A DNA stretch of 64,000 bases from an uncultured Bacteroidota bacterium (GCA_963703215.1 OY969800.1:3522581-3586580), one strand, 5' to 3'. Counted from the first letter of the stretch, positions 41,017 through 64,000 are shown. Numbers and translations: made by a program. Notes: generated by a model not told the origin, from the sequence alone.

Positions 41017-41150
41017 CTCTAACGTTTGGTGGAAAGAGTTGTTGCGCTGGCCCGCCTTGAGAGCTACATAGCGTCGAGTCATCGAGCGAAAGCAATGAAG
41101 CGACCACCTTGAATATACTATGTGGAGCATCCCTCGGCCTCTTGTCATAC
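41017..41150 (-). repeat. attC-like site 1 (degenerate)
   Basis: + strand CTCTAAC...TGAAGCG...GAGCAT...GTCATAC. Confidence 0.75.
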
Positions 41151-47455: not shown

Positions 47456-48733
47456 TCATTTGAGCAATAAAAGTTTCTTGGTGTCATGGTACGTGCCAGC
47501 GTCAAGCCTGTAGAAGTATATTCCACTGGGAAGGCTGCCTGCGTTAAACGTAATGGAATGATTGCCTGCACTCTGGCGTTCGTTAACCAGAGTTTCAACT
47601 CTTCTCCCCAATACATCGAATACCATTAACGACACAAAAACGTTCGTTGTCAATTGGTAACCTATGATGGTTGATGGGTTAAATGGGTTAGGGAAATTCT
47701 GAAGCAAGGCAAATCTCTTCGGCACTCTATTGTCCGCTTGTTTTACAGACGTAGTCATTTCAGACAAAGTCCTTTTCCACACTCCATGTCCCCAGGTACC
47801 TGCAAATAGAAACGAGTCCTTAATGGCGAGAGAGTAGACCGCTGAATCTAAGGATCCTGTATTGACGGCGCTCCAGGTCGTGTCATGGTCAGTGGACAGA
47901 AAGACTCCTCCCCAAGTGCCTGCAAAGAGTCTGTCGCCGCTAGTCACAAGAGACATGACGTTCCCTCCAGCGAACGTGAGACCAGAACTACTGTTGAACC
48001 AATTTGTGCCGTTGTTTGTCGTGAAGAAAACGCCACCGCCATCGGTACCAGCAAATAGAGTGCCTCCTATAAAGGTCAGCGCTTGAACAACTGTTGTTCC
48101 TAAGCCAATCCAGTGAACAGATTCAATCAGTCCATTACTTACAGCAGTCCAACTTGTTCCATTATTGATCGAAAGAAAGACTCCTTTATCCGTCCCTGCA
48201 AAAAGCTCTGTATCTCTGATGGCAAGACACTCGACATACGCATCTTCCATGCCAGTATTTGCAGCTGTCCAGCTATCGCCGTTGTTGGTGGAAAGAAAAA
48301 CCCCTTGACCATAGATACCCGCAAAGATATTGGTTCCACTGAAAGCAAAAGTTGTGAGGTCGTAGTTTGTCAAGCCGCTGTCTATTGATGTCCAACTGGA
48401 ACCGTTATCGGTGGAACGAAAGACTCCTCCATCTGCATGCGCAAAAAGAACCGTGTCTTTGATGGCCAAAACGTTGGCAACATTGCCAGACGGACTTATG
48501 CGGATAGTGTCCCAACTATTGCCGTTGTCGCTGGACAAAAATGTTCCCCCTCCGATATAGTAGTGATCTACAGTAGTTGGCCCATCACCGACAACGAGAT
48601 TCTTACCGAGCACGGCAATGCAATAGATGTGACCGTCGGAAAGTCCGTTGGTTTGTATCCATTGTGCATTTAAAGAACTTATAGCGCTGAAGAAGGTAAT
48701 CACCAACGCTAAAACCCGAAATAGATTCTTCAT
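47456..48733 (-). CDS. Cassette gene: BNR/Asp-box beta-propeller with T9SS type A C-terminal sorting domain
   Basis: Start MKNLF after AGGAG; repeats GVF.S.DNG.SW; LLQNFPNPFNPST...SGIYFYRL...TKKLLLLK. Confidence 0.9.
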   Translation of the reverse strand: MKNLFRVLALVITFFSAISSLNAQWIQTNGLSDGHIYCIAVLGKNLVVGDGPTTVDHYYIGGGTFLSSDNGNSWDTIRISPSGNVANVLAIKDTVLFAHADGGVFRSTDNGSSWTSIDSGLTNYDLTTFAFSGTNIFAGIYGQGVFLSTNNGDSWTAANTGMEDAYVECLAIRDTELFAGTDKGVFLSINNGTSWTAVSNGLIESVHWIGLGTTVVQALTFIGGTLFAGTDGGGVFFTTNNGTNWFNSSSGLTFAGGNVMSLVTSGDRLFAGTWGGVFLSTDHDTTWSAVNTGSLDSAVYSLAIKDSFLFAGTWGHGVWKRTLSEMTTSVKQADNRVPKRFALLQNFPNPFNPSTIIGYQLTTNVFVSLMVFDVLGRRVETLVNERQSAGNHSITFNAGSLPSGIYFYRLDAGTYHDTKKLLLLK

Positions 48734-48770
48734 CAGGTTCTCCTTTCGTGTAGCAGTAAAGGGCAATTGC

Positions 48771-48904
48771 AACTAACGTCCACCGCAAAAAAGTTGTCCC
48801 GCTTGCCGCTAAAAATATTGCATGGCATCCACGATGCGGCGAAGCGGGATGAAGCGAGTTCTATCATATACAATAATCGAGCGTCTTTTTTGCGGTTGTT
48901 AGGC
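48771..48904 (-). repeat. attC-like site 9
   Basis: AACTAAC GTCCA CCGCAAAAAAG...CTTTTTTGCGG TT GTTAGGC. Confidence 0.9.
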
Positions 48905-50543: not shown

Positions 50544-52112
50544 TTACTTCCTTTTGGATGACTTCTCAGGCAAAAGGTTAATCACGTATTCGGTGTTATA
50601 CTTAAGTAAGGCATACGATTCACTCGTCATTATCACTTCAATTTTTTCTTTTTTCTCTCTTTTCTCCCTTTGTTCATCTTCTTGACTTCTTTTCCAAATG
50701 CGTTCTATCTTCTGGACGAGTGATTCCAGTTCCCGCCGAGCTTGAACTGAATCGCGGCTCAGCAATTCCTGCTTGGCTCTTTGGTACCGTTGTTCAATAT
50801 TTTTAGCTATGCCATTGTCGGCCAGTTCGTCGTTATCATTGTCGTTATCGCGGCCTTTTCCGAGCCAACCAAGGTCAGCGGACTGTCGCGTATAATTGAT
50901 AAGGCTATCGAGAAGATTCAGCGGATTAGCGGAAGACGAATTTATTTTTGGGCCAATCGTATAGCCAATTACCGAATTTGTTAAAAGATCATTACGAACT
51001 TGTTCATCAGTAGGCACCTGCATTGGGTCATCCCAAGATATTGATGATGGTGCGTACCCTTTCACGAAGTAACGAACAATCGCAGGCAAATATGAGTCAT
51101 GCAGCCCAAACCCTTCAGCACTTTTGCCTATCCCGATCATGTAATGCTTTTCAGAATCTTGAAGATCCCACAAAACTGCAGAAAAGGGTGTTGTGGGTAG
51201 TGCTGCCAACCAACCTCTTGGCGAAGTCATGATTGCGTCCTGATCCACGTCTTGGAGAAAAATACTTCTTATCTTTTGTTTGCTTGTCGGCGCATTTGAC
51301 CATCGGTAATGATAGTTAAATGCTGAACTATCTTGAGTCACCCAGCAAGATGGTTCGACGCTTAATCGGTCAGCGGGTAAGTTAGTAGTGGAAGGGGTTT
51401 GAACCGTGTTGGGCCATAACCCATAAAGCGAACCATTATAGCTGTATGTAACATACGGTCTTGTGTTCATTAACGTATCGGGGAACAGTGCGTTGTCTTT
51501 ATCCCAAAAAGCCCAAATCTCCTTGATGCCGTTCCCTTTCAAGTCGAATAACTGGTACCAATCAGCTCCTGATAAAAGAACGGATTGCCCCGTGTTGGGA
51601 TTGACAGCGTTTAGGATTCGAGCCCGCCTTCCGTTCCAACTGAGTATCCACAGGTAGCTGAGATAGTCTATGTCCTGATCTGCGTCTCTCACGCTGACTA
51701 AAACATCAACCTCTCCATCATTGTTTATGTCTGAACTACCCAAGACGTATGCTCCACGACACGCACAGAGAGGCCCCGAATCCCATATAACATTTCCATT
51801 TGAAGAGAATCCAAAAATCTTTTTTGCCTCTGGTATCTGCATATCCTTTTCATCGGCTTGCCAAGCCTCAAAAAACATTTTACCTTTGAGCGTGCCATAA
51901 GGGTCTAAGAAATCCTGATCTATGGTAGCATCCCTCACAACTACGAGTAGGGTATCAAACGGATCAACGGCTACCAGATAATTCTTTGAATATTTCTGTA
52001 ATAAGTATGATTCGATTTGGCGGTCAATTGCTAAATAGGGTCTTCCCGTCTGAGATTTCGCAGACTGTTGTAAGAAGAAGATTACGAGTAAACATAAGAA
52101 TACTGTTTTCAT
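50544..52112 (-). CDS. Cassette gene: secreted multidomain protein (Ca-binding DxNxDG loops, helical C-terminus)
   Basis: Signal peptide; DINNDGEVDV and DLKGNGIKEI; 14 bp downstream of the transglycosylase-like gene. Confidence 0.75.
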   Translation of the reverse strand: MKTVFLCLLVIFFLQQSAKSQTGRPYLAIDRQIESYLLQKYSKNYLVAVDPFDTLLVVVRDATIDQDFLDPYGTLKGKMFFEAWQADEKDMQIPEAKKIFGFSSNGNVIWDSGPLCACRGAYVLGSSDINNDGEVDVLVSVRDADQDIDYLSYLWILSWNGRRARILNAVNPNTGQSVLLSGADWYQLFDLKGNGIKEIWAFWDKDNALFPDTLMNTRPYVTYSYNGSLYGLWPNTVQTPSTTNLPADRLSVEPSCWVTQDSSAFNYHYRWSNAPTSKQKIRSIFLQDVDQDAIMTSPRGWLAALPTTPFSAVLWDLQDSEKHYMIGIGKSAEGFGLHDSYLPAIVRYFVKGYAPSSISWDDPMQVPTDEQVRNDLLTNSVIGYTIGPKINSSSANPLNLLDSLINYTRQSADLGWLGKGRDNDNDNDELADNGIAKNIEQRYQRAKQELLSRDSVQARRELESLVQKIERIWKRSQEDEQREKREKKEKIEVIMTSESYALLKYNTEYVINLLPEKSSKRK

Positions 52113-52126
52113 TTTACTTCTCCTTA

Positions 52127-53092
52127 TTAATGAGGTAAATATTTTTGTGAAAGAGATAACACTTTCTTTCCATAATTCTTTTCGCCAGGATTATGTTGTT
52201 GAAAAGCCTTTCTCCATGCCTCCTCGAAACCTATGCTCCAATCATGGTCAGGAATAGAAGCGGGTTTCCCAAGAACCACCCACAATCTCTGAAGCATCAG
52301 ATCGGTATACCGAGGGAACAAATAATCGATTTCGTTTAGTTTTTCAGGAGGAGAAGAAGCATCTGAGCGTTTCATAAAAAGAGAATTTGCAGGAGCATAA
52401 CGAGAACCTGTCTGCGTAAACTTTGTGCAGACTGCGGTCGTGTAAAGCATCTGAGTCAACCCGTACGATGCTGATATTCGAGTTTGTGCGTAGAGATTGT
52501 TGTAATCATTTCCATACAATTCAGAATGAAATTTATTTTTCATGATGTCTATGGCAAAATTCGTTGCATCTTTTCCTTTATATCCAAGCGCGAGCACCTC
52601 CTTATATATTAGCCTAAAGTCACTTGTCAAAGGTTGTGTGTATTCCTGCCTGCCGATCACGAGAAGCTTTGATCTGTTGACATATCGTTCCAAGTGATTT
52701 TCGAGAAAATGTGTAATCTTAAGAGGCGTCCGTTGATAATCCGTCGGGCTCACGTTCGTGTGACCAGATGGAAAATTTCCGCCCATTCCTGAAGCGGAAA
52801 CAACAAATGGAAGCAATGCCCCATCTCTATTGGTTAATAACCCGATATTCTCATCGTGTCTTTGTATATAAATATCCTCAAACGGTTCGTAACGCCACAC
52901 GTTCTTGAATAGAGTCTCTTTCTCAATGTGACCTTTAATCATTTGCGGTGGAATCCCGTTTTCACCAGCATATTTTATGATGACATCATCTAAGTTGATG
53001 GTATTACCGAAGACGTCCGTAATCTGACTATACTGTGCCATGGTTACCGTCGGCACAAACAGAACAATTGCAAAAAGAACTTTCATCGACAT
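52127..53092 (-). CDS. Cassette gene: secreted lytic transglycosylase/lysozyme-like protein
   Basis: IIKYAGENGIPPQMIKGHIEKET (catalytic E), ASYGLTQM (GLMQ-like), HNPG...Y..KV. Confidence 0.7.
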   Translation of the reverse strand: MSMKVLFAIVLFVPTVTMAQYSQITDVFGNTINLDDVIIKYAGENGIPPQMIKGHIEKETLFKNVWRYEPFEDIYIQRHDENIGLLTNRDGALLPFVVSASGMGGNFPSGHTNVSPTDYQRTPLKITHFLENHLERYVNRSKLLVIGRQEYTQPLTSDFRLIYKEVLALGYKGKDATNFAIDIMKNKFHSELYGNDYNNLYAQTRISASYGLTQMLYTTAVCTKFTQTGSRYAPANSLFMKRSDASSPPEKLNEIDYLFPRYTDLMLQRLWVVLGKPASIPDHDWSIGFEEAWRKAFQQHNPGEKNYGKKVLSLSQKYLPH

Positions 53093-54771: not shown

Positions 54772-55278
54772 TCAGCCATTCACCAGAAATGCTAGATTTA
54801 AATTTACATTTACTTTCTTGTTGTTCTCGTGCACCGTCGCATGAACTCTATACACCCCCAGCGGGTCATTGTGCTCAAGGGCAATGTCGATCTTAGACCA
54901 CGAAAGTTCCATCACAGGCGCGGGCTCGTCCTTCCAGATCGTGAGCCCATCAAAGTGAGCATACATAGACCCATCGGGTTTGGTCACGGTCAGATCGCAT
55001 GTTAAGTTAGCGTTGCCCTTGTCATCCTTACCGTCCGTGGCAAAAATTATAATCGGGAGCGCAGTCTGCCCGCGTTTGAATGTGTCTTGAGTACTGATGT
55101 GGGGAGTCTCGGGCAATGCCCACTTCTGATAAAAGGTCGTGTCGTCAGTCAGCAAGAAAATCACAGAAAAGCCATCCTTATTGTATTCGTCCTTCTGAAT
55201 CAAGGAATCAGGAGGCGCGGCAAACACTTTTCCAAAGCCGCAGACAAACATTAAGAAAAATAGAGAAGCTTTGTTCAT
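54772..55278 (-). CDS. Cassette gene: secreted hypothetical protein
   Basis: Signal peptide ending VFA; Ig-like C-terminus (DPLGVYRV). Confidence 0.75.
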   Translation of the reverse strand: MNKASLFFLMFVCGFGKVFAAPPDSLIQKDEYNKDGFSVIFLLTDDTTFYQKWALPETPHISTQDTFKRGQTALPIIIFATDGKDDKGNANLTCDLTVTKPDGSMYAHFDGLTIWKDEPAPVMELSWSKIDIALEHNDPLGVYRVHATVHENNKKVNVNLNLAFLVNG

Positions 55279-55353
55279 CCTTCAACCTTTCTTTATCGAT
55301 AATATTTCATGGTAGCATACTCATGTCATCAGAGCGGCTCGCAAGCCAATGAC

Positions 55354-55488
55354 AGATAACGTCCTGCAAGAAAAAGTCGTTGCTCTCGCCCGCCACAAAT
55401 GTTGCGAAGCATCCAGACAACGGGCGAGAGCAATGAAGCGACCACCTTGCATATATAATGTGGAGCATCTTTTTCTTGCTTGTTAAGC
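55354..55488 (-). repeat. attC-like site 14
   Basis: AGATAAC GTCCT GCAAGAAAAAG...CTTTTTCTTGC TT GTTAAGC. Confidence 0.9.
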
Positions 55489-55545
55489 GCAGTTGTTTTG
55501 CATCTTAAAGTTGACCACTTCTGCGAACGAGGACTTGCTCGCCTT

Positions 55546-56160
55546 TTAGAACCACCGCTTCCTTTTTTTGTAAACCACATCGTCGCCCTTACCATGGTCG
55601 TCCTTCAAGTCTTTTCCAACACTGTAAAGCAAAAACGAATCAGGTGCAACAGGTCTATAAATTATTGTGAGTTCTGGTATTCCCACTCCTACATATGTAT
55701 GGACTGGAGAGTGTTGGTCAAAATCGTTCATAGTGAAATCACCAACAGAATTAGAATCTCCAATCTTCATGGGTTTCACCCACCCAACATCACCACGATT
55801 CTTCACAAATAGAGTGTCCCTCGTCCTGTTAATCGAATCAGCGTAAATGTAAACGTCTTCGATGTGAACGTATTTCCTGATAGAATCAATAAAATATTTT
55901 CCACTAATTTGAGGGTAGTGGCCATAATCGGAGTGGTATTTATGTAACCCTGTCGCTGTTGAATCTAGAAGTTCGGAGATGATTTTCGCATCCAGTTCAT
56001 TATACAAATCGGGACCATGAATGAAACTCAGTTGCATTTGCCTGAGTTGCCAATATGCAAATGAAATGAGCAAACCGACAATAGTAATGCCAAGAACAAT
56101 TTGCAACCACCGTTTCTGTTTGATAACGCGTGGAATGAATCGCTCAGGGATTGGAATCAT
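55546..56160 (-). CDS. Putative immunity protein 1: single TM + GspG-pseudopilin-like domain
   Basis: Overlaps the toxin stop by 17 nt; YHSDYGHYP and FLLYSVGKD..DD.GKGDDV motifs. Confidence 0.6.
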   Translation of the reverse strand: MIPIPERFIPRVIKQKRWLQIVLGITIVGLLISFAYWQLRQMQLSFIHGPDLYNELDAKIISELLDSTATGLHKYHSDYGHYPQISGKYFIDSIRKYVHIEDVYIYADSINRTRDTLFVKNRGDVGWVKPMKIGDSNSVGDFTMNDFDQHSPVHTYVGVGIPELTIIYRPVAPDSFLLYSVGKDLKDDHGKGDDVVYKKRKRWF

Positions 56161-56899
56161 TTCCTGACTCTGGTATTAGTGGTACAGTATTTATTGGGAC
56201 ACCCACAGGATTTATAATCCCTTCATTCATTAGCAATCCAACCGCTTGGTAAATAATCTCGCCAGCTATTGAGGAACCACTCAACGAAATTGTCCTCTCT
56301 GAATTTGTGACGTAGCCAGAATTTTGAAGAGCATTAGAGAGCTGCTCTGGTGACACCGCTCCATTTGGTTGATTGAAAGGAATTCCGCCAGCCTTCAACG
56401 CGTTCATTGTGGTTGTTACGCATGAATTAGTTTCCGCGTTATAAGTGCCATCCTGTCGGCTATCGAGAACTTTCTGAACTTTTGTTTCGTCAACATTAAC
56501 CGTTTGCTCTATGACAGACCGAACCTGCTTTTCATTTGCAACATACTTATCATATGAAACCAAGTGCCATTTCCCGTCACCCTCAAAGGAATACACTTTC
56601 CCATCTCTCCTGATAGCCGTATGGCCAGCAAGACTGTTAGCAGTAGGACTACCATTAGTTGTGTTCTGAATCGTAGGGCCAGAAGTAATCACCGATGTGG
56701 TATCACCGTTAGGGTCAATAAACCTTATCGGATTATCCATCCCATAGTTGTATGGCGACAATCCTGGATACTTTCGTTGCATCGGGTCAGGTGTCGTCCA
56801 CCTCGCGCACCATGAATCAAAATATCTGTGCGCGTAGGTCGGTTGAACAAATGTGAATGCCAAAAGAAGGAGTGGGAAAAAGTTTCTAATCTTTTTCAT
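56144..56899 (-). CDS. Signal-peptide mini-RHS toxin 1 with permuted papain-like C-terminal domain
   Basis: Sec signal, then RYFDSWCARWTTPDP...SPYNYGMDNPIRFIDPNG (RHS core), then GHTAI...YNAETNSC. Confidence 0.8.
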   Translation of the reverse strand: MKKIRNFFPLLLLAFTFVQPTYAHRYFDSWCARWTTPDPMQRKYPGLSPYNYGMDNPIRFIDPNGDTTSVITSGPTIQNTTNGSPTANSLAGHTAIRRDGKVYSFEGDGKWHLVSYDKYVANEKQVRSVIEQTVNVDETKVQKVLDSRQDGTYNAETNSCVTTTMNALKAGGIPFNQPNGAVSPEQLSNALQNSGYVTNSERTISLSGSSIAGEIIYQAVGLLMNEGIINPVGVPINTVPLIPESGNDSNP

Positions 56900-56919
56900 G
56901 AGAATGCCCTTTCTGCGAT

Positions 56920-58236
56920 TTAGTATTGTCCAGTTAGTTTAAACTTCTCGATTGATTCTGCCTGCTTGATGAAAAACTTCTCAGGGAACTTCAGCACGAT
57001 TCCTAATTGCTTGGCTTTCGTCTTCAATTTATGGCCAAGGTCTATGAGTTCCAATATCTGCTTCCCGTAGCTGTCATTTATGTATGCAATCTCTCCCATC
57101 ATCTCAGCCTCATCATTCTGACGCTGAACGTTTGGATTTTGGTTTACTGGAAACTGGTTGTAAGGATTATTTGGCTTCTCAAACGGATTCGGAGCTTGAG
57201 GACTCATATTTCTTGTAAATTGATCGAACATCGTGGTTATTGGTTGACGAGGTTGTGTTGGGTCGGAGGTCCCTTGTTGAATAAACTGGTCGGGGTGTAT
57301 TATTTGCATTGGCTCTGGAGTAGGATTCACTTCCATTTGTGATGATGGTTGTCGCGTTGGATACGTGTCGACAATGTAGCTTCGCCTTACGTCCTGAATC
57401 CTTTCGTACCTTGTGCTGTCAAGCTCTATCGCCTTTCTTCTGCAAAGCTCACCAAGGTTCCACCATGCGCTTGAGTTGGTAGAATCGTAGGAAAGCGAAA
57501 GCCGTGTGTAGTAAATAGCTTTATCCAAATCCTTTCTCTTTTCTAAAAAGTATCTTGCGTTCACTCCGAGAAGCGAGGCGACGTATTCTTTATTTGTGAG
57601 AACTCTTTCATAAACTCCATTCTTGATGGCTCTCTTTGGTTCACCAGCATCGGTGGCGTACCTCCATGTGGGAATATATCCACCGCCACATGTTGCCTCA
57701 ACGTTGTTTAGCTTGAATCCTTTCTGCATGTAACGGCAGTAGAAATGCTTTGCGCTTCTAACAGGCTTAATGGGCCAACCGAGTCGTTGCGCCAAGACAA
57801 GATGGAGCATCGACATCGTGACACATGAGCCGAGTTTCGTTGCGATGTAGCCGTTTAAGAATTGGTCACTGGTACTATCACCTTCAAGGTCATTGAGGTT
57901 ATAAGTGAAGGTAATTGAATCGTTCCACCGCCCAGGCCTGTAAAGATAGGTATTCATCAAGCCAATGCGGAAAACTGGGTCGGCTTTGCCTTGGTCAAGG
58001 TAACGAATCTGGTCAGCCATGTAGTTAATGACGTAATCAAAGGACTCGACTTTTAGATTTGGATATGCATCTTTTGCAAGAGCGAGGCAAGCAATCCCAA
58101 GGTTTATGCTGTCATCGGGCATAGCGAGGATCTGTTCAATCGTCTGCCCTGTGTACTTCGATTGTGGTTTCGTCGTGTCAGGAATCAAGAAACAGAGAAT
58201 AACCACTGCCGATAATAAGATTTCAAGTCGCTTCAT
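56920..58236 (-). CDS. Secreted SirB1/transglutaminase-like protein with TPR and Pro/Gln-rich region, copy 1
   Basis: FLNGYIATKLGSCVTMSMLHLVLAQRLGWPI...AKHFYCRY...NVEAT; TPR (KAIYY...AWWNLG). Confidence 0.75.
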   Translation of the reverse strand: MKRLEILLSAVVILCFLIPDTTKPQSKYTGQTIEQILAMPDDSINLGIACLALAKDAYPNLKVESFDYVINYMADQIRYLDQGKADPVFRIGLMNTYLYRPGRWNDSITFTYNLNDLEGDSTSDQFLNGYIATKLGSCVTMSMLHLVLAQRLGWPIKPVRSAKHFYCRYMQKGFKLNNVEATCGGGYIPTWRYATDAGEPKRAIKNGVYERVLTNKEYVASLLGVNARYFLEKRKDLDKAIYYTRLSLSYDSTNSSAWWNLGELCRRKAIELDSTRYERIQDVRRSYIVDTYPTRQPSSQMEVNPTPEPMQIIHPDQFIQQGTSDPTQPRQPITTMFDQFTRNMSPQAPNPFEKPNNPYNQFPVNQNPNVQRQNDEAEMMGEIAYINDSYGKQILELIDLGHKLKTKAKQLGIVLKFPEKFFIKQAESIEKFKLTGQY

Positions 58237-58245
58237 GCTCGCCTC

Positions 58246-58274
58246 ACTTTACTGATGATTTCATGTTTACGCAA
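58246..58274 (-). promoter_or_regulatory. Candidate cassette-internal promoter
   Basis: Minus strand TTGCGT-N17-TAAAGT, conserved in the next cassette. Confidence 0.4.
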
Positions 58275-58308
58275 TACCCCGTTTGAGGTATTTTCGCAAA
58301 ACAATTGC

Positions 58309-58445
58309 GCTTAACGTCCACCGCAAAAAAGTCGTCCCGATTGCCGCACATAAATATTTGCGCAGCATCCATGATACGCGGCAATCGGGATGAAGCGAAT
58401 TCAATATATGTTCCATAATGAGCGTCTTTTTTGCGGTTGTTAGCT
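58309..58445 (-). repeat. attC-like site 15
   Basis: GCTTAAC GTCCA CCGCAAAAAAG...CTTTTTTGCGG TT GTTAGCT. Confidence 0.9.
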
Positions 58446-58511
58446 GCTGTTGGTTTGCGCTTCGTTAGCCTCCTGATATGCCATGGTCAATCACCTTACT
58501 CTATAATTGGC

Positions 58512-59129
58512 CTATTCTTTCAAAAATCTTTCTTTTTCCGTCTGAAAAAATTTAACCTCTCGAAACCTCCCTGTGATGCTGGTCTCGTAAAGTACCTCAG
58601 AATGTTTTAGAGACTCATTTATCGGACTGATATTATTAATTGCGCAATCCATTTGTTCAATAGCTTTGGATAAGCTTCCAAACTTCTTGTAGGCACCAGC
58701 TAATACATATCTATTAAGAACCCAATCTGGAGATGAAAAAACAGATTGTTCGAGCAAATCAATCTGTTCCATGAGATTTATTTTCTCTAAATCATCAAGG
58801 GTTTCGGCTAGTAACATAAAAACTGCGCCTTTTTGTTTGGAAACATTATTCAATATCATGGATCGCAACAATTTCTCAGCTTGCAGAAGTGAACTTTTAT
58901 CCATTGAATAATGAATGTGACAGAAACAGAGCCAAAGTTTGGCAATTTCATATTCTGGATTCAACGCAAGGATTCTATTCAATAGAGCAATTGCTTTATC
59001 TTCTTTATGAAATGGCTCGATGTAGAAACTTGATAACTCAAGCATATTACTGACATCACCTTTGTCTGTCGAGGTTTTACGCTCAAGGGCTACCAGTTTT
59101 TCTATGTCTTCTTTTGTTTCGTGTCCCAT
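58512..59129 (-). CDS. Putative immunity protein 2 (TPR-like, cytoplasmic)
   Basis: Immediately downstream of toxin 2; AT-rich; helical TPR-like repeats; no signal peptide. Confidence 0.6.
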   Translation of the reverse strand: MGHETKEDIEKLVALERKTSTDKGDVSNMLELSSFYIEPFHKEDKAIALLNRILALNPEYEIAKLWLCFCHIHYSMDKSSLLQAEKLLRSMILNNVSKQKGAVFMLLAETLDDLEKINLMEQIDLLEQSVFSSPDWVLNRYVLAGAYKKFGSLSKAIEQMDCAINNISPINESLKHSEVLYETSITGRFREVKFFQTEKERFLKE

Positions 59130-59142
59130 GATTTAAAGGTTA

Positions 59143-59893
59143 TTATTGGTTTGGTACGAAAACAGTTCCCAGCTTTACGGTTCGGTCACTGTCAATAAAA
59201 CCTCGTATGGCGACAGTTGTTCCATCAATGTCTTTTGTTACTGCAAAAGTCCCAGGTGAAGGATTGTCCTCTTGGACAGACTCTTATCACGGACTCTAAG
59301 AAATTTTCGTTTCCGCCGAGCCTTTCTATCAGGGGTTGAAGCATATGTTCGTCCTGCAGTATGTGGGCAAGCTTAGCCTCCTTCATAGCATATTCAAGTG
59401 ATTTTGCTAAAACTTCTTCCTCACCAGCTGGCCCGCCAGGGATATTTACGATTCCCATCGTGAGAGTCGGTCTCGGTGCGAACCATCTCGCTCCGTTTGC
59501 GGTCGGTACGATTTCACGGTTAGGCTGCATATGGTGGAAATGCCCCATGAACGGATCAATCACGGTGTATTGAGCAAGAGTTAAAATTGTGAAATTTCCA
59601 GAAACATAATTAGAGTTTTGCTGTCCCCAAACAATCATATCTGGCGAGTTATCAATAGGAACTAAATTGTGGTTTTGGTCGTAAGCATATGTCGTATCTC
59701 CGCTTGGGTCGATATTTCTTAATGGGTTACAGAGTCCGTAGTTGTACGGAGACCATGCTGGGTACAGCATTAGATATGGGTCAGGGGTGCACCATTGCGC
59801 ACGCCATGAATCAAAATATCTATGAGCGTAGCTCGGTTGAACAAACGTAAATGCCAAAAGAAGAAGTGAGAAAAAGTAAGTAGTCTTTTTCAT
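59143..59893 (-). CDS. Signal-peptide mini-RHS toxin 2 (apparent +1 frameshift about 59281)
   Basis: Sec signal + RHS core ...NPLRNIDPSG; repaired C-terminus KLAHILQDEHMLQPL...SVQEDNPSPGTFAVTKDIDGTTVAIRGFIDSDRTVKLGTVFVPNQ*. Confidence 0.75.
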
Positions 59894-61177
59894 CGGAATG
59901 CCCTTTCAGTTAGTCAGTATTGTCCTGTTCGTTTGAACTTCTCAATTGATGCTGCTTGCTTGATGAAAAACTCTTTGGGAAACTTCAGCACGATTCCAAG
60001 TTCCTTAGCTTTTGCTTTTAATTTATGTCCAAGGTCTATGAGTTCCAATATTTGCTTTCCGTAGCTGTCGTTTATGTACGCAATCTCTCCCATCATCTCT
60101 GCTTCATCATTCTGCCTTTGAATGTTTGGATTCTGATTAATAGGGAACTGATTGTATGGATTGTTTGGCTTCTCAAGCAGTGATGGAGGTTGCGGAGCTA
60201 TGTTCCTCGTGAACTGGTCGAACATGTCTGTTACTGGAATTCTTGGTTGCGTCGGATCAGGAGGCACCTGTTGGATGAATTGGTCTGGATGTATTATCTG
60301 TGTTGGCTGAGGATTCGGATTCACCTGAACTTGTGGTGATGGCTGTCGCATAAGATAATCGTCAGTTGCGTAGTTCCGCTTCACGTCTTGTATTCTCTCA
60401 TATCTGATACTATCAAGCTCTATCGCTTTCTTCCTACAAAGCTCGCCGAGGTTCCACCACGCACTTGAGTTGGTGGAGTCGTAGGAGAGGGAAAGCCGTG
60501 TGTAGTAAATGGCTCTGTCCAATTCTTTCTTTTTCTCTGCGAAGTACCTTGCATTCACTTCGAGAAGCCCTGCAATGTATTCTTTGTTCGTGAGAACTCT
60601 CTCATAAACTCCATTCTTGATAGCCTTCTTCGGCTCTCCTGCATCGCGCGCGTAACGCCATGTCGGTATCCATCCCCCACCGCAGGTCGCTTCGATATTA
60701 TCGTACTTGAGACCTTTCTTGATGTAACGACAATAGAAATGCTTAGCACTTCTGACAGGTCTGATGGGCCAGCCGAGCCTCTGCACCAAGGCAAGGTGGA
60801 GCATCGACATCGTAATACAAGAACCATGCTTCGTTGCGATATATCCGTTCAGAAATTGGTCGTTGGTGCTGTCGGCGTCGAGGTCATCAAGATTATAAGT
60901 GAATGTGATGGCATCGTTCCACCATCCAGGCCGATATAGGTAGGTATTCATCATGCTAATCCGAACCGTGGGGTCGGTTTTCCCTTCGCAAAGCGGTCGA
61001 ATGTGGTCAGCCATATAGTTGAGACTGTAATCGAAGAAATTTATGTTGAGATTCGGATACGCATCCTTTGCAAGAACGAGACAAGCTATTCCAATATTGA
61101 TGCTGTCCTCTGGCATGGCAAGAATTTGCTCAATGGTTTGTCCTGTGTATTTCGATTGTGGCACGGACTCGTTGGGA
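59429..61177. repeat. Long direct repeat, copy A (pairs with 62252-64000, offset 2823)
   Basis: High identity over the SirB1-like gene and the toxin N-terminal half; ends abruptly at the IPGGP codons. Confidence 0.9.
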
Positions 61178-61230
61178 TTAAAGAAGGACACCACTACAAG
61201 AACCGAAAGCAGGGTATTTAAATGTTTCAT
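59914..61230 (-). CDS. Secreted SirB1/transglutaminase-like protein, copy 2
   Basis: 438 aa; GSCITMS, AKHFY, NIEAT conserved. Confidence 0.75.
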   Translation of the reverse strand: MKHLNTLLSVLVVVSFFNPNESVPQSKYTGQTIEQILAMPEDSINIGIACLVLAKDAYPNLNINFFDYSLNYMADHIRPLCEGKTDPTVRISMMNTYLYRPGWWNDAITFTYNLDDLDADSTNDQFLNGYIATKHGSCITMSMLHLALVQRLGWPIRPVRSAKHFYCRYIKKGLKYDNIEATCGGGWIPTWRYARDAGEPKKAIKNGVYERVLTNKEYIAGLLEVNARYFAEKKKELDRAIYYTRLSLSYDSTNSSAWWNLGELCRKKAIELDSIRYERIQDVKRNYATDDYLMRQPSPQVQVNPNPQPTQIIHPDQFIQQVPPDPTQPRIPVTDMFDQFTRNIAPQPPSLLEKPNNPYNQFPINQNPNIQRQNDEAEMMGEIAYINDSYGKQILELIDLGHKLKAKAKELGIVLKFPKEFFIKQAASIEKFKRTGQY

Positions 61231-61239
61231 GCTCGCCTC

Positions 61240-61268
61240 ACTTTACTGATGATTTCACGTTGACGCAA
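61240..61268 (-). promoter_or_regulatory. Candidate cassette-internal promoter
   Basis: Minus strand TTGCGT-N17-TAAAGT. Confidence 0.4.
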
Positions 61269-61304
61269 TACCTCAATTGGGGTATTTTCGCGCAAACTAA
61301 TTGC

Positions 61305-61441
61305 AGATAACGTCCACCGCAAAAAAGTCGTCACGATTGCCGCATATAAATATTTATGTAGCATCCATGGCACGCAGCAATCGGGATGAAGCGAGTTCCA
61401 TCATATAGAATAACTGAGCGTCTTTTTTGCGGTTGTTAGCT
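61305..61441 (-). repeat. attC-like site 16
   Basis: AGATAAC GTCCA CCGCAAAAAAG...CTTTTTTGCGG TT GTTAGCT. Confidence 0.9.
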
Positions 61442-61481
61442 GCTGTTGGTTTGCGCTTCGTTATTTTGCTGAGTGCCCAAT

Positions 61482-61922
61482 CTATTTTCCGATAGCCACC
61501 GCTTTCAGCCCCTTCCTTATTTCTAATTCCGAAAATACCACGTCTATCCTCCTCATGTTGCCTCGCTCCCAAAGTATCGCAATATGTTGAAACTCTTTTG
61601 GCAATTCTTCATAAGGCTTAAGCATGGTGGAATGTTCTTCCAGTCTAATTGCCGCAACTTCATTGATTCCCCAATTTATTCGATAAGGGTCAAGAACCAT
61701 GGATTCATTAAGGGCATTAGTCAAATGGAATTCTTGAACCAACTTGAAGGACATAACTATCGGTTCCTTCTCGTTCAGGTTCTCTCTTATCTTCCCCTGT
61801 TTGTTCCAAGAGTAATCAAAGGTTAGCTCAATTGTTGTACCATAATGTAACCACTTTATATCTAGTAGAACGCACTCTTGGAAGTTCCGATAGCTTGCAA
61901 GCAAACTCTTTATGTGTTCCAT
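61482..61922 (-). CDS. Putative immunity protein 3 (cytoplasmic)
   Basis: GGAGG RBS, 17 bp after the toxin 3 stop, no signal peptide. Confidence 0.6.
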   Translation of the reverse strand: MEHIKSLLASYRNFQECVLLDIKWLHYGTTIELTFDYSWNKQGKIRENLNEKEPIVMSFKLVQEFHLTNALNESMVLDPYRINWGINEVAAIRLEEHSTMLKPYEELPKEFQHIAILWERGNMRRIDVVFSELEIRKGLKAVAIGK

Positions 61923-61939
61923 TTTTCCTCCGCACTTAG

Positions 61940-62716
61940 TTAATATGGAGACACCTGAATGCCATGCGAGCTCGCTCTATCTGGTGCCACATTTCCAGCA
62001 TTATCCAGATAGTTGCCGAACTCGTTCATGACACGGATTTCCCAACCACCGTTCCGATTCATTATCCTCACCTCTTCACCCAAGCCGTTTCTAAAAAGGT
62101 ATCCTCCTCCGCTTTCGGACAAACTTTGGGTAAAGCCACTTTTGAGAAGAAGGTCACGAATTCCAATAATACTTTTTCCTTCCACTGTACCACCCTCAAA
62201 TAGTGCCTTCAACGCACTTGAAGCTACTCTTAAACCAGAGGGAAGTTCTTCTGGCCCCCCAGGGATATTTACAATTCCCATACTTATGGTTGGCCTTGGC
62301 GCGAACCATCTTGCTCCGTTTGCGGTCGGTACGATTTCACGGTTAGGCTGCATATAATGAAAGCGACCCATGAACGGGTCAATCACAGTGTATTGAGCAA
62401 GAGTTAAAATTGTGAAATTGCCAGAAACATAATTAGGGCTTTGCTGTCCCCAAGAAATTATATCAGGCGAGTTATCGATTGGCACTAAATCATGATTTTG
62501 ATTGTAAGCATACGTCGTATCTCCGCTAGGGTCTATATTCCGCAACGGATTGCAGAGTCCGTAATTGTACGGAGACCAGCCAGGGTACAACATTAGATAT
62601 GGGTCAGGGGTGCACCATTGCGCACGCCATGAATCAAAATATCTGTGAGCATAGCTCGGTTGAACAAACGTGAATGCCAAAAGAAGAAATGAGAAAAAGT
62701 AAGTAGTCTTTTTCAT
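61940..62716 (-). CDS. Signal-peptide mini-RHS toxin 3 with putative RNase-like C-terminal domain
   Basis: Sec signal + RHS core; C-terminus VRIM...IRVMNEFGNYLDNAGN...SH. Confidence 0.78.
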   Translation of the reverse strand: MKKTTYFFSFLLLAFTFVQPSYAHRYFDSWRAQWCTPDPYLMLYPGWSPYNYGLCNPLRNIDPSGDTTYAYNQNHDLVPIDNSPDIISWGQQSPNYVSGNFTILTLAQYTVIDPFMGRFHYMQPNREIVPTANGARWFAPRPTISMGIVNIPGGPEELPSGLRVASSALKALFEGGTVEGKSIIGIRDLLLKSGFTQSLSESGGGYLFRNGLGEEVRIMNRNGGWEIRVMNEFGNYLDNAGNVAPDRASSHGIQVSPY

Positions 62717-64000
62717 CGGAATGCCCTTTCAGTTAGTCAGTATTGTCCTGTTCGTTTAAACTTCTCAATTGATTCTGCTTGCTTGATGAAAAACTCTTTT
62801 GGAAACTTCAGCACGATTCCAAGTTCCTTAGCTTTTGCTTTTAATTTATGCCCAAGGTTTATGAGTTCCAATATTTGCTTTCCGTAGCTGTCGTTTATAT
62901 AAGCAATCTCTCCCATCATCTCCGCCTCGTCATTCTGTTGCTGTACGTTGGGATTCTGGTTGACAGGGAATTGATTGTAAGGATTATTCGGCTTTTGAAG
63001 AATTGACGGAGGTTGCGGGGCCATATTCCTTGTGTATTGGTCGAACATGTCGGTTACTGGAATTCTTGGTTGTGTCGGGTCGGAAGGCGTCTGTTGGATA
63101 AACTGGTCGGGGTGCATTATCTGCATTGGTTCTGGGGTAGGATTCACTGGTAACTGCGGTGATGGTTGCCGCGTTGGGTAGTTGTCCACAACGTAGCTTC
63201 GCTTCACATCTTGAATCCTTTCGTACCTGATACTGTCCAGTTCTATCGCTTTCTTCCTGCAAAGCTCGCCGAGGTTCCACCACGCACTTGAGTTGGTGGA
63301 GTCGTAGGAGAGGGAAAGCCGTGTGTAGTAAATGGCTCTGTCCAAATCTTTCTTTTTCTCTGCGAAGTACCTTGCATTCACTTCGAGAAGCCCTGCAACA
63401 TATTCTTTGTTCGTGAGAACTCTTTCATAAACTCCATTCTTGATAGCCTTCTTCGGCTCTCCTGCATCGCGCGCGTAACGCCATGTCGGTATCCATCCCC
63501 CACCGCAGGTCGCTTCGATATTATCGTACTTGAGACCTTTCTTGATGTAACGACAATAGAAATGCTTAGCACTTCTGACAGGTCTGATGGGCCAGCCGAG
63601 CCTCTGCACCAAGGCAAGGTGGAGCATCGACATCGTAATACAAGAACCATGCTTCGTTGCGATATATCCGTTCAGAAATTGGTCGTTGGTGCTGTCGGCG
63701 TCGAGGTCATCAAGATTATAAGTGAATGTGATGGCATCGTTCCACCATCCAGGCCGATATAGGTAGGTATTCATCATGCTAATCCGAACCGTGGGGTCGG
63801 TTTTCCCTTCGCAAAGCGGTCGAATGTGGTCAGCCATATAGTTGAGACTGTAATCGAAGAAATTTATGTTGAGATTCGGATACGCATCCTTTGCAAGAAC
63901 GAGACAAGCTATTCCAATATTGATGCTGTCCTCTGGCATGGCAAGAATTTGCTCAATGGTTTGTCCTGTGTATTTCGATTGTGGCACGGACTCGTTGGGA
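62252..64000. repeat. Long direct repeat, copy B
   Basis: Matches 59429-61177. Confidence 0.9.
62737..64000 (-). CDS. SirB1/transglutaminase-like protein, copy 3 (5' end beyond window)
   Basis: Nearly identical to copy 2 in the catalytic domain; the signal peptide would lie past 64000. Confidence 0.75.
   Translation of the reverse strand, partial: PNESVPQSKYTGQTIEQILAMPEDSINIGIACLVLAKDAYPNLNINFFDYSLNYMADHIRPLCEGKTDPTVRISMMNTYLYRPGWWNDAITFTYNLDDLDADSTNDQFLNGYIATKHGSCITMSMLHLALVQRLGWPIRPVRSAKHFYCRYIKKGLKYDNIEATCGGGWIPTWRYARDAGEPKKAIKNGVYERVLTNKEYVAGLLEVNARYFAEKKKDLDRAIYYTRLSLSYDSTNSSAWWNLGELCRKKAIELDSIRYERIQDVKRSYVVDNYPTRQPSPQLPVNPTPEPMQIMHPDQFIQQTPSDPTQPRIPVTDMFDQYTRNMAPQPPSILQKPNNPYNQFPVNQNPNVQQQNDEAEMMGEIAYINDSYGKQILELINLGHKLKAKAKELGIVLKFPKEFFIKQAESIEKFKRTGQY

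Follow-up and report, generated by a model that had tools for sequence, protein, structure and literature searches.

Organization of the locus

The DNA described here is a stretch of 64 000 nt from the genome of an uncultured Bacteroidota bacterium (GCA_963703215.1, OY969800.1:3522581-3586580), hereafter the window; positions are counted from its first nucleotide unless given as genome coordinates. On the minus strand, the window carries three tandem units of three genes each, encoding a 438 aa partner protein, a small toxin and a third, putative immunity protein, and each partner gene lies 20 nt ahead of its small toxin gene. The toxins consist of a predicted signal peptide, a short remnant of the rearrangement hotspot (RHS) core and a variable tip, and were identified as ORFs:

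56144..56899, minus strand: toxin 1, 251 aa; TIGR03696 match of 41.2 bits over residues 22-65; signal peptide, aa 1-23 (56831-56899); RHS-core remnant, aa 24-65 (56705-56830); variable tip, aa 66-251
59225..59893, minus strand: toxin 2, 222 aa; TIGR03696 match of 32.8 bits; signal peptide, 59825-59893; core, 59699-59824; a middle domain in common with toxin 3 to ~aa 155, then its own C-terminal tip
61940..62716, minus strand: toxin 3, 258 aa; TIGR03696 match of 32.4 bits; signal peptide, 62648-62716; core, 62522-62647

The N-termini of toxins 1-3 align as MKK..LLLAFTFVQP(T/S)YA, followed by HRYFDSW.A.W.TPDP...SPYNYG..NP.R.IDP.G and then by DTT. Positions 33-75 of the 76 in the NCBIfam profile TIGR03696 (RHS repeat-associated core) correspond to toxin residues 22-65; toxins 1 and 2 score above its cut-off of 32.5 bits, and toxin 3 lies 0.1 bit under it. 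Of the three toxins, only toxin 2 showed any match to the Pfam RHS_repeat family, at 15.4 bits where the cut-off is 22, so that no YD/RHS repeat array is present. A fourth unit lies just beyond the window (genome 3586.9-3589.4 kb). Its toxin 4 (genome 3587372-3588085) has the same layout with 45% identity over the first 68 residues, and carries a different signal peptide, MRKLSIVVLLVVAFSQFAFA, followed by GRYYDSW...; the partner of the fourth unit shares 40% identity with partner 1. Sequencing runs listed for the locus comprised seven of DNA, from two studies, and none of RNA.

To assess the signal peptide, we examined 50 aligned family members, in which 21-25 residues precede an invariant Arg, using a heuristic rather than SignalP: a K or R within the first eight residues, and a 10-residue window with a mean Kyte-Doolittle hydropathy of ≥2.0. 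All but one of the members (49/50) passed. Ala stands at -2 from the invariant Arg (the predicted -1 of the cleavage site) in 44/50 members, and S, A, I, V, T or L at -4 (the predicted -3), also in 44/50. This pattern fits signal peptidase I cutting between A and G/H, which would give a mature N-terminus of G/H-R-Y-Y/F-D and leave no space for another N-terminal domain. The toxins are thus predicted to be Sec-secreted, with the signal peptide one residue ahead of the core and a mature length of ~200 residues. In the AlphaFold2 (AF2) model of toxin 1 alone, residues 4-22 form a confident helix. The mean predicted local distance difference test score (pLDDT) was 57.2, residues 55-63 fell below 50, and the NPxxxDPxG half of the core was predicted to be disordered.

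Similarity to the ..YFGA that stands before RYYD in ordinary RHS repeats is seen at window positions 56831-56845 and throughout the family, where the signal peptide runs out in ..FAG or ..YAH ahead of RYYD or RYFD. The leader was perhaps grafted precisely at this repeat boundary.

Conservation of the signal peptide-core layout

To define the family, a profile of 68 columns from the four N-termini was searched with HMMER against 1.84 billion protein cluster representatives, which yielded 34750 matches at E≤1e-3, 977 of them at E≤1e-10; when residues 1-70 were used in a word-index search, only eight short relatives appeared. Among the best 150 representatives, 55 fit a strict pattern (Met start, hydrophobic leader, core from residue 15-45) and 15 more fit by eye, being RYYI-, RMYD- and DK-type variants that the strict pattern missed, which makes at least 70 in all. 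Another 47 were ordinary RHS fragments, with the core preceded by repeat sequence ending in ..YDYFGA, and the remainder were short or N-terminally cut. Recurrence of the layout is far above chance. Family members are typically 180-310 aa in length, and in the alignment of 50, with 16-39% overall identity to toxin 1, residues R25, D38, P39, Y50, N56, P57, D62 and G65 are invariant in 50/50.

Purifying selection on the protein sequence of the core is strong. Between toxins 2 and 3, the proportion of differing synonymous sites (pS) in the core is 0.50 and that of non-synonymous sites (pN) 0.01, with 89% nucleotide identity; between toxins 1 and 2, the values are 0.73, 0.22 and 67%. In comparisons of the others with toxin 4, pS is saturated, pN is 0.29-0.36 and nucleotide identity is 52-61%. 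Retention of the core as protein while synonymous sites approach saturation speaks against a mere DNA homology handle.

A sequence-only reading of this stretch had described three copies of a signal peptide standing directly before a ~43 aa core and followed by DTT, an observation that the ORFs, the alignment and the TIGR03696 matches bear out, as the heuristic does for the conserved start and signal peptide. It had argued that the copies are not orphan RHS fragments, and proposed a search for small proteins combining a signal peptide with an RHS core. The profile search found the ≥70 representatives described above, and the fixed signal-to-core distance and protein-level selection uphold the argument.

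A variant toxin was seen in a second genome (G041) at L025:451-1299 (minus strand), after a shorter partner of 336 aa. It has a signal peptide, a spacer of ~45 residues and the second half of the core only, FLSVDP...SPYHYSLNNPLRYIDPNG, the RYYD half being absent.

The partner protein

The partner genes of the three units are:

56920..58236, minus strand: partner 1, 438 aa; PF13369 match of 31.8 bits; modelled with AF2; stop codon 20 nt before the toxin 1 start
59914..61230, minus strand: partner 2, 438 aa; PF13369 match; 79% identity to partner 1
62737..64000, minus strand: partner 3, cut by the window end, with the full gene at genome 3585320-3586633; 94% identity to partner 2

Matches of the partner to PF13369 (Transglut_core2) score 31.8 and 32.3 bits against a cut-off of 23.5. 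Partner 1 is predicted to open with a signal or anchor helix, to continue with a transglutaminase-like core (C138, H164, E180), TPR-like helices and a P/Q-rich linker (aa 292-365, disordered), and to close with a long, conserved C-terminal helical hairpin. Across 29 partner sequences with 37-82% identity to partner 1, G136, C138, H164, N178 and T182 are invariant, and E180 is kept in 93% and replaced by D otherwise. In the AF2 model (mean pLDDT 80.3), C138 lies at the N-terminal end of a helix, with H164 and E180 on strands next to each other; by these comparisons the putative Cys-His-Glu triad is intact. The partner has at least 95 relatives of similar length, the few with source names coming from Ignavibacteria, Calditrichaceae and KSB1 bins.

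The closest solved fold was menin, with a VIA-align Z of 15.6 and a root-mean-square deviation of 4.1 Å over 247 residues (model range 26-424). The next VIA-align match had a Z of 10.4, the lower matches were coiled-coil hits to the hairpin, and Streptococcus pyogenes TglA had a Z of 9.1. Foldseek against the PDB returned no match at E≤0.001 for the partner; its top match was again menin, at E 2.6e-3. Menin (PF05053) and the PF13369/SirB1 family both pack a transglutaminase-like domain on TPR helices. The menin pocket binds peptides, as the titles of PDB entries and of one cited reference indicate, and SirB1-type PF13369 proteins are cytoplasmic, whereas the partner appears to be exported. In the relevant passages of PMC10318531, human menin is described as being without the catalytic Cys, and bacterial PF13369 proteins as having no known function. 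The partner family, in contrast to human menin, keeps Cys-His-Glu.

Zhang et al. (2012) described fused proteins in which a signal peptide and an inactive transglutaminase precede an RHS-repeat toxin, and proposed a peptide-binding or anchor role for the transglutaminase domain (passages of PMC3482391). Common to those proteins and the present units is a polymorphic toxin in which a Sec signal goes together with a transglutaminase-fold module and with sequence derived from RHS. However, their domain is fused, is without the triad residues and stands ahead of a full RHS array, whereas here a separate PF13369-type protein has its predicted triad intact and the array is absent.

With the partner as query, nine genome loci were found (37-77% identity) in bins labelled Kryptoniota, Ignavibacteriota, Bacteroidota/Bacteroidetes, Cytophagia and KSB1. 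The next gene encodes a signal peptide-core toxin of 245-300 aa at eight of the nine; at the ninth (L018), the contig ends after the partner. All three partner genes of G041 are likewise followed by such a toxin, so that the pair occurs at 11/12 related loci overall. Two or three units occur at each of three loci (L014, L015 and L019). The order of toxin, partner and immunity genes holds over phylum-level distances. Within the phylum, the partner query was matched in 2/301 sampled genomes, the source genome included, and not in the single genome of the same genus, which marks the system as sporadic rather than lineage-wide.

An unrelated protein in another cassette of the window (47456-48772, minus strand) is also 438 aa long, and carries a type IX sorting domain (Por_Secre_tail, 37 bits).

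Modelled docking of the remnant on the partner

We modelled a complex of partner residues 25-438 (alignment of 29) and toxin residues 24-75 (alignment of 50). The complex scored 0.64, 0.64 and 0.67, and the three controls 0.00; this mark was reached by 58/80 solved complexes and 2/110 mismatched pairs. The pLDDT of the toxin chain was 51-53, and the runs shared at least 52% of contacts. Confident contacts on the toxin side were D28, W30, N56-R59, I61-D66 and T68, and on the partner side 58-73, D106, I108, 123, N128-T133 and K163, which is next to H164. As a prediction, the model supports docking of the toxin tag (NPxxxDPxG) on the partner. The sequence-only reading had offered the core as a docking tag for the partner as one of two options, and modelling favours that part of it (0.64 against 0.00 for the best control).

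Tips, immunity genes and tip swapping

The third gene of each unit encodes a putative immunity protein:

55546..56160, minus strand: putative immunity protein 1, 204 aa, with an N-terminal membrane helix; assigned by position; overlaps the toxin 1 stop
58512..59129, minus strand: putative immunity protein 2, 205 aa, TPR-like (weak TPR matches, under cut-offs), without a signal peptide; role assigned from position only
61482..61922, minus strand: putative immunity protein 3, 146 aa, without a signal peptide; assigned by position, and conserved after the toxin 3 homologue

At one of the related loci (L015), toxin 1 is found again with its downstream gene (67 and 52% identity), as is toxin 3 with its own at another (L013, 82 and 75% identity). 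Toxins 2 and 3 are near-identical as far as GGP at ~aa 155 and unrelated thereafter, and their third genes are unrelated too, which has the appearance of a classic tip swap. By their sequences, the toxins show the hallmarks of polymorphic toxins: a conserved N-terminal part, variable tips and a downstream immunity gene. N-terminal membrane or signal segments are present in immunity candidates 1 and 4 and absent from 2 and 3, which suggests that the toxins may have both periplasmic and cytoplasmic targets.

Tip families above the Pfam cut-off were found in 7 of 63 members scanned: DUF5675 (twice), Ntox44, YkuD, VanY, Colicin_D and, in the fourth copy, Peptidase_M91. Four more members had sub-threshold tip matches and 52 had none. 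The predicted tips of the family include peptidoglycan enzymes, a metallopeptidase-like domain and a colicin-D-type tRNase. Scans with Pfam and NCBIfam assigned neither the tips of toxins 1-3 nor the immunity proteins to a family. An atlas search with the toxin 1 tip gave leads only, which were not used (an unnamed cluster at 0.91, and TseH, IcsB_M and Lnb_N clusters at 0.83-0.86).

Toxins 2 and 3 have a conserved middle domain of ~90 residues between the core and the swapped tip (aa 66-155; window 59440-59698 and 62263-62521). This domain also occurs in L011, L013, P0104 and P0106, no family was found for it, and it could be a receptor-binding or translocation part.

A conventional RHS gene near 238.8 kb of the source genome reads ..LDYFGA RYYDSWRGQW...DPYG L and then ..DKDHNLVPI.., the latter resembling the start of the tips of toxins 2 and 3. 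This likeness indicates an exchange of sequence between the small toxins and conventional RHS tips.

In the maf loci of Neisseria, mafA is an accessory gene upstream and spare tip cassettes follow. The MafA/MafB/MafI system resembles the present one in having a signal-peptide toxin with a short conserved N-terminal region, a variable tip and an immunity gene (for MafB, passages of PMC4436062). The conserved region of MafB, however, is DUF1020 and not an RHS core, and no sequence relationship to the small toxins was found.

Integron-type cassettes

The units are parted by repeats of ~150 nt that begin, on the gene strand, with ..CTAAC.. and end in GTTAAGC- or GTTAGGC-like sequence, at spacings of 2994 and 2823 nt. 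Three such attC-like sites flank the units of the window:

55353..55502, minus strand: attC-like site closing cassette 1; nhmmer match at genome 3578082-3577933; repeat families D7 and D10
58306..58461, minus strand: attC-like site between cassettes 2 and 1; nhmmer E 1.9e-40
61302..61457, minus strand: attC-like site between cassettes 3 and 2; nhmmer E 1.5e-44; repeat families D3 and D4

The site at 58306..58461, with ..CTAAC.. at the 5' and GTTAAGC at the 3' end on the gene strand, forms an imperfect 130 nt hairpin with a DNA folding energy of -32.8 kcal/mol (z -5.63; 0/200 shuffles as stable). A profile of eight repeat copies found 61 sites genome-wide, of which 29 are contiguous and co-oriented at genome 3563599-3602672 (from window position 41019). 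Given the attC-like flanks in an array, each trio represents one three-gene cassette, and the trio has been captured as an integron-type cassette four times in tandem in the source genome.

An integron integrase scoring 434 bits against a cut-off of 265 (genome 3493885-3494820) is separated from the first attC of the array by 69 kb of ordinary genes. It is the only one above the cut-off and has no adjoining site of the attC profile, so the arrangement of an adjacent integrase and attI was not found. The array shares with integron gene cassettes the attC-like imperfect hairpins, a GTTRRRY-type 3' end, its run of 29 sites and an integrase in the genome. Unlike cassettes of the typical description, these hold three genes in ~2.8-3.0 kb, and the integrase is distant.

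The other 32 attC-like sites lie elsewhere, mostly in seven other genome clusters (e.g. 2938156-2958200, with 16 sites). Provided that the single contig forms a circle, the array picks up again beyond the start of the genome record, near a 303 aa tyrosine recombinase (L010:4153-5064, minus strand; the genome coordinates are the same). This protein scores 216.9 bits with the integron-integrase model (cut-off 265) and 213.9 bits with XerA (cut-off 220), is without profile positions 180-241, and has an attC-like site just upstream (genome 5257-5329). Two array cassettes (window 54772-55278 and genome 3602703-3603209) carry an identical 168 aa secreted protein, next to which ORFs of 522 and 321 aa recur, as judged by length (window 50544-53092; genome 3599940-3602488).

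Secretion genes near the modules

At one of the loci found with the partner (L017), genes for a prepilin peptidase, a T2SSE ATPase (467 bits) and a secretin (144 bits) lie directly before the partner gene. A secretin gene precedes the partner gene at another (L016), and at two more (L018 and L019), PilM/PilN, PilO/T2SSM, PilX_N and N-methyl pilin genes surround the modules. From this linkage, we infer that export across the outer membrane probably proceeds via a type II secretion or pilus-type secretin machine. The source genome has an orthologous peptidase-ATPase-secretin cluster (57-78% identity) at 229.9-234.8 kb, followed by a 2285 aa teneurin-like YD-shell protein and an RHS core array. 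The 2285 aa protein, encoded within L027 (genome 221000-240999), has 12 Glucodextran_B/Ig domains together with teneurin TTR, FN-plug, NHL and YD-shell regions. The position of this cluster beside giant teneurin-like and RHS genes suggests that giant and minimal toxins use one machine. Delivery of teneurin-like toxins remains to be elucidated, according to a passage in a 2026 paper (PMC13018210).

About 15 RHS cores with different tips lie at 191-221 kb of the source genome. The sequence-only reading had not extended to the integron-cassette context, the intact triad of the partner or the tie to type II secretion genes.

Discussion

The presence of an RHS core remnant between a signal peptide and an exchangeable tip, encoded next to a dedicated partner, led us to favour, at slightly better than even confidence, the hypothesis that these proteins are shell-less polymorphic toxins whose RHS remnant is a partner-binding processing tag, with the tip released at or near DPxG by or with the partner. 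The module would then join a secreted partner of the transglutaminase-like/TPR type to a small toxin exported via Sec and to a cognate immunity protein, and the use of the module may be antibacterial. The toxin would have lost the entire RHS shell and kept only the last 42 core residues, one residue past the signal-peptidase site, ahead of its toxic tip. No longer a barrel plug, the remnant would act as a pre-toxin tag, the NPxxxDPxG half of which would dock on the menin-like peptide-binding face of the partner, beside the intact Cys-His-Glu site. The partner would escort the toxin and most likely free the tip at or near DPxG, and a type II secretion or pilus-type secretin machine would probably provide passage across the outer membrane. 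A literature search, with subscription-only papers and supplements outside its scope, found no description of an architecture in which a signal peptide is joined to an RHS remnant.

Several observations weigh against this hypothesis. In the complex model, the catalytic C138 lies outside the confident contacts and only K163, adjoining H164, lies inside; the interface of the partner has a conservation of 0.73 against 0.65 for the rest of the fold, a difference that is not significant, as 905/10000 random residue sets reach it. The predicted binding comes from a single modelling run with alignments of our own making and a low pLDDT (51-53), and the predicted signal peptide from a heuristic. A search for longer fused homologues of the partner found none, and hence no fused transglutaminase-RHS form, although this is weak evidence. 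Two loci (L012 and L016) carry extra toxin-immunity pairs without a partner gene of their own. Linkage to secretion genes was seen at 4/9 loci, representing about two independent lineages, and is not found beside the cassettes of the source genome, where the T2SSE gene moreover reads in two frames (overlapping ORFs at L027 11170-11958 and 11948-12694); the frame break could be real or an assembly error. Finally, invariance of the Arg/Asp/Asp positions is equally predicted by autonomous autoproteolysis.

That alternative holds that the 42-residue remnant folds alone or transiently and that its Arg/Asp/Asp cuts after DPxG without shell or partner, the partner having some other role. It is possible, and we consider it less likely than the partner-binding tag and unlikely in itself. 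Its strength lies in the comparison with characterized Rhs proteins, which have two catalytic Asp residues 22-23 apart and are cleaved after DPxG-W/L/F: D1324 and D1346 in RhsA, with a cut after W1350, and D1141 and D1164 in Tse5, with a cut between L1168 and I1169 (passages of PMC8765631 and PMC10684867). A conserved Arg adjoins the catalytic Asp pair in bacterial teneurin-like proteins (passages of PMC13018210). By alignment, R25, D38 and D62 of the small toxins appear to hold the RHS Arg, Asp and Asp positions, with an Asp-Asp spacing of 24 against 22-23 in RhsA and Tse5, and all three are invariant in a core under strong purifying selection.

Against cleavage by the remnant alone, the first DPxG of the toxins is without its Gly, and PxxxxDPxG is present but the W/L/F after the cleavage-site motif is absent. 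In the four copies, the second DPxG is followed by D, D, D and R, compared to L or F in 11 of the 16 conventional RHS cores of the source genome, all of which are preceded by repeat sequence. Among the 101 of the 150 listed proteins that have the core within 45 residues, a set that includes short proteins without a signal peptide, K (36), R (13), D (9), N (9), Q (7) and E (4) account for 78/101. As the nearest RHS fragments also vary at this position (M10, R10, K7 and others, of 48), the argument is a soft one. Furthermore, the autoprotease site of the solved Rhs structures belongs to a plug packed against the shell (passages of PMC8765631 and PMC10684867), and residues 55-63 had a pLDDT below 50 when toxin 1 was folded alone. 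The sequence-only reading had recognized the RHS aspartyl autoprotease motif and allowed that it might self-cleave without a barrel; the motif stands, its Arg/Asp/Asp positions being kept in 50/50 members, while self-cleavage without a barrel is somewhat disfavoured by the residue after DPxG and the predicted disorder of the NPxxxDPxG half.

The small toxins have in common with the Rhs/YD-shell toxins (RhsA, Tse5, Rhs1, TcC and bacterial teneurin-like proteins) a core motif with an Arg and two Asp residues, an exchangeable C-terminal toxin and a downstream immunity gene. Unlike them, they are without YD repeats, shell or a delivery domain of the PAAR, VgrG or TcB type, keep core positions 33-75 of 76 only, have a separate partner gene and show no W/L/F after DPxG.

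The tag could instead be an escort or secretion signal only, binding the partner or the secretion machine and never being cleaved, with the partner triad directed at the cell wall or a target-cell protein. The binding model, the menin-like scaffold fold, the linkage to secretin and pilus genes and the position of C138 outside the confident interface would all suit such a role. We nevertheless judge it rather improbable, because it fails to explain why the exact RHS catalytic positions are invariant beyond the contact residues, or why an intact Cys-His-Glu triad should lie next to the docked DPxG.

Two further explanations were rejected. The conserved stretch might serve only as a DNA homology handle for tip swaps with RHS genes, as in orphan rhs-CT cassettes, and the RYYDSW...DPYG of the 238.8 kb RHS gene, with its subsequent ...DKDHNLVPI... 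stretch resembling the start of the toxin 2 and 3 tips, together with the confinement of differences between these two toxins to the distal tip, would agree with this; it is very improbable, since core nucleotide identity is 52-67% between subtypes, synonymous sites are near saturation with the protein kept, and members less than 50% identical retain the eight invariant residues. Decay of full-length RHS genes that happen to have gained a hydrophobic N-terminus is the least credible of all, for although RHS fragments make up 47 of the best 150 database proteins with the core, the signal peptide stands at a fixed distance in at least 70 of them, gene order with partner and immunity genes is kept over phylum-level distances, and the core is under purifying selection.

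Returning to the partner-binding processing tag, we can also envisage a bolder form of it, which we regard as speculative and on balance doubtful: a two-protein minimal RHS system, in which the 42-residue plug is a portable cleavage module, inactive and unfolded alone, that folds and fires only in the menin-like pocket of the partner, which would replace the 100 kDa shell. The pair would then be dedicated cargo of a type II-like secretin machine that also serves giant teneurin-like RHS toxins. If true, bacterial PF13369 proteins would gain their first function, and the RHS protease mechanism a tractable system for its study.

RHS toxins have been understood as cargo inside a large shell, with the last residues of that shell forming the protease that releases them. 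The existence of a widespread family without a shell, in which the remnant is under strong selection and has a dedicated partner, suggests that the function of the remnant is separable from the shell, and a toxin of ~250 residues with a partner of ~440 residues offers a system for probing that function. The findings show that whole toxin-helper-immunity modules move as integron cassettes. They also suggest a first role for bacterial Transglut_core2 (PF13369) proteins, and point to export of RHS-type toxins by Sec and then by a type II-like route in the Fibrobacteres-Chlorobi-Bacteroidetes group of phyla.

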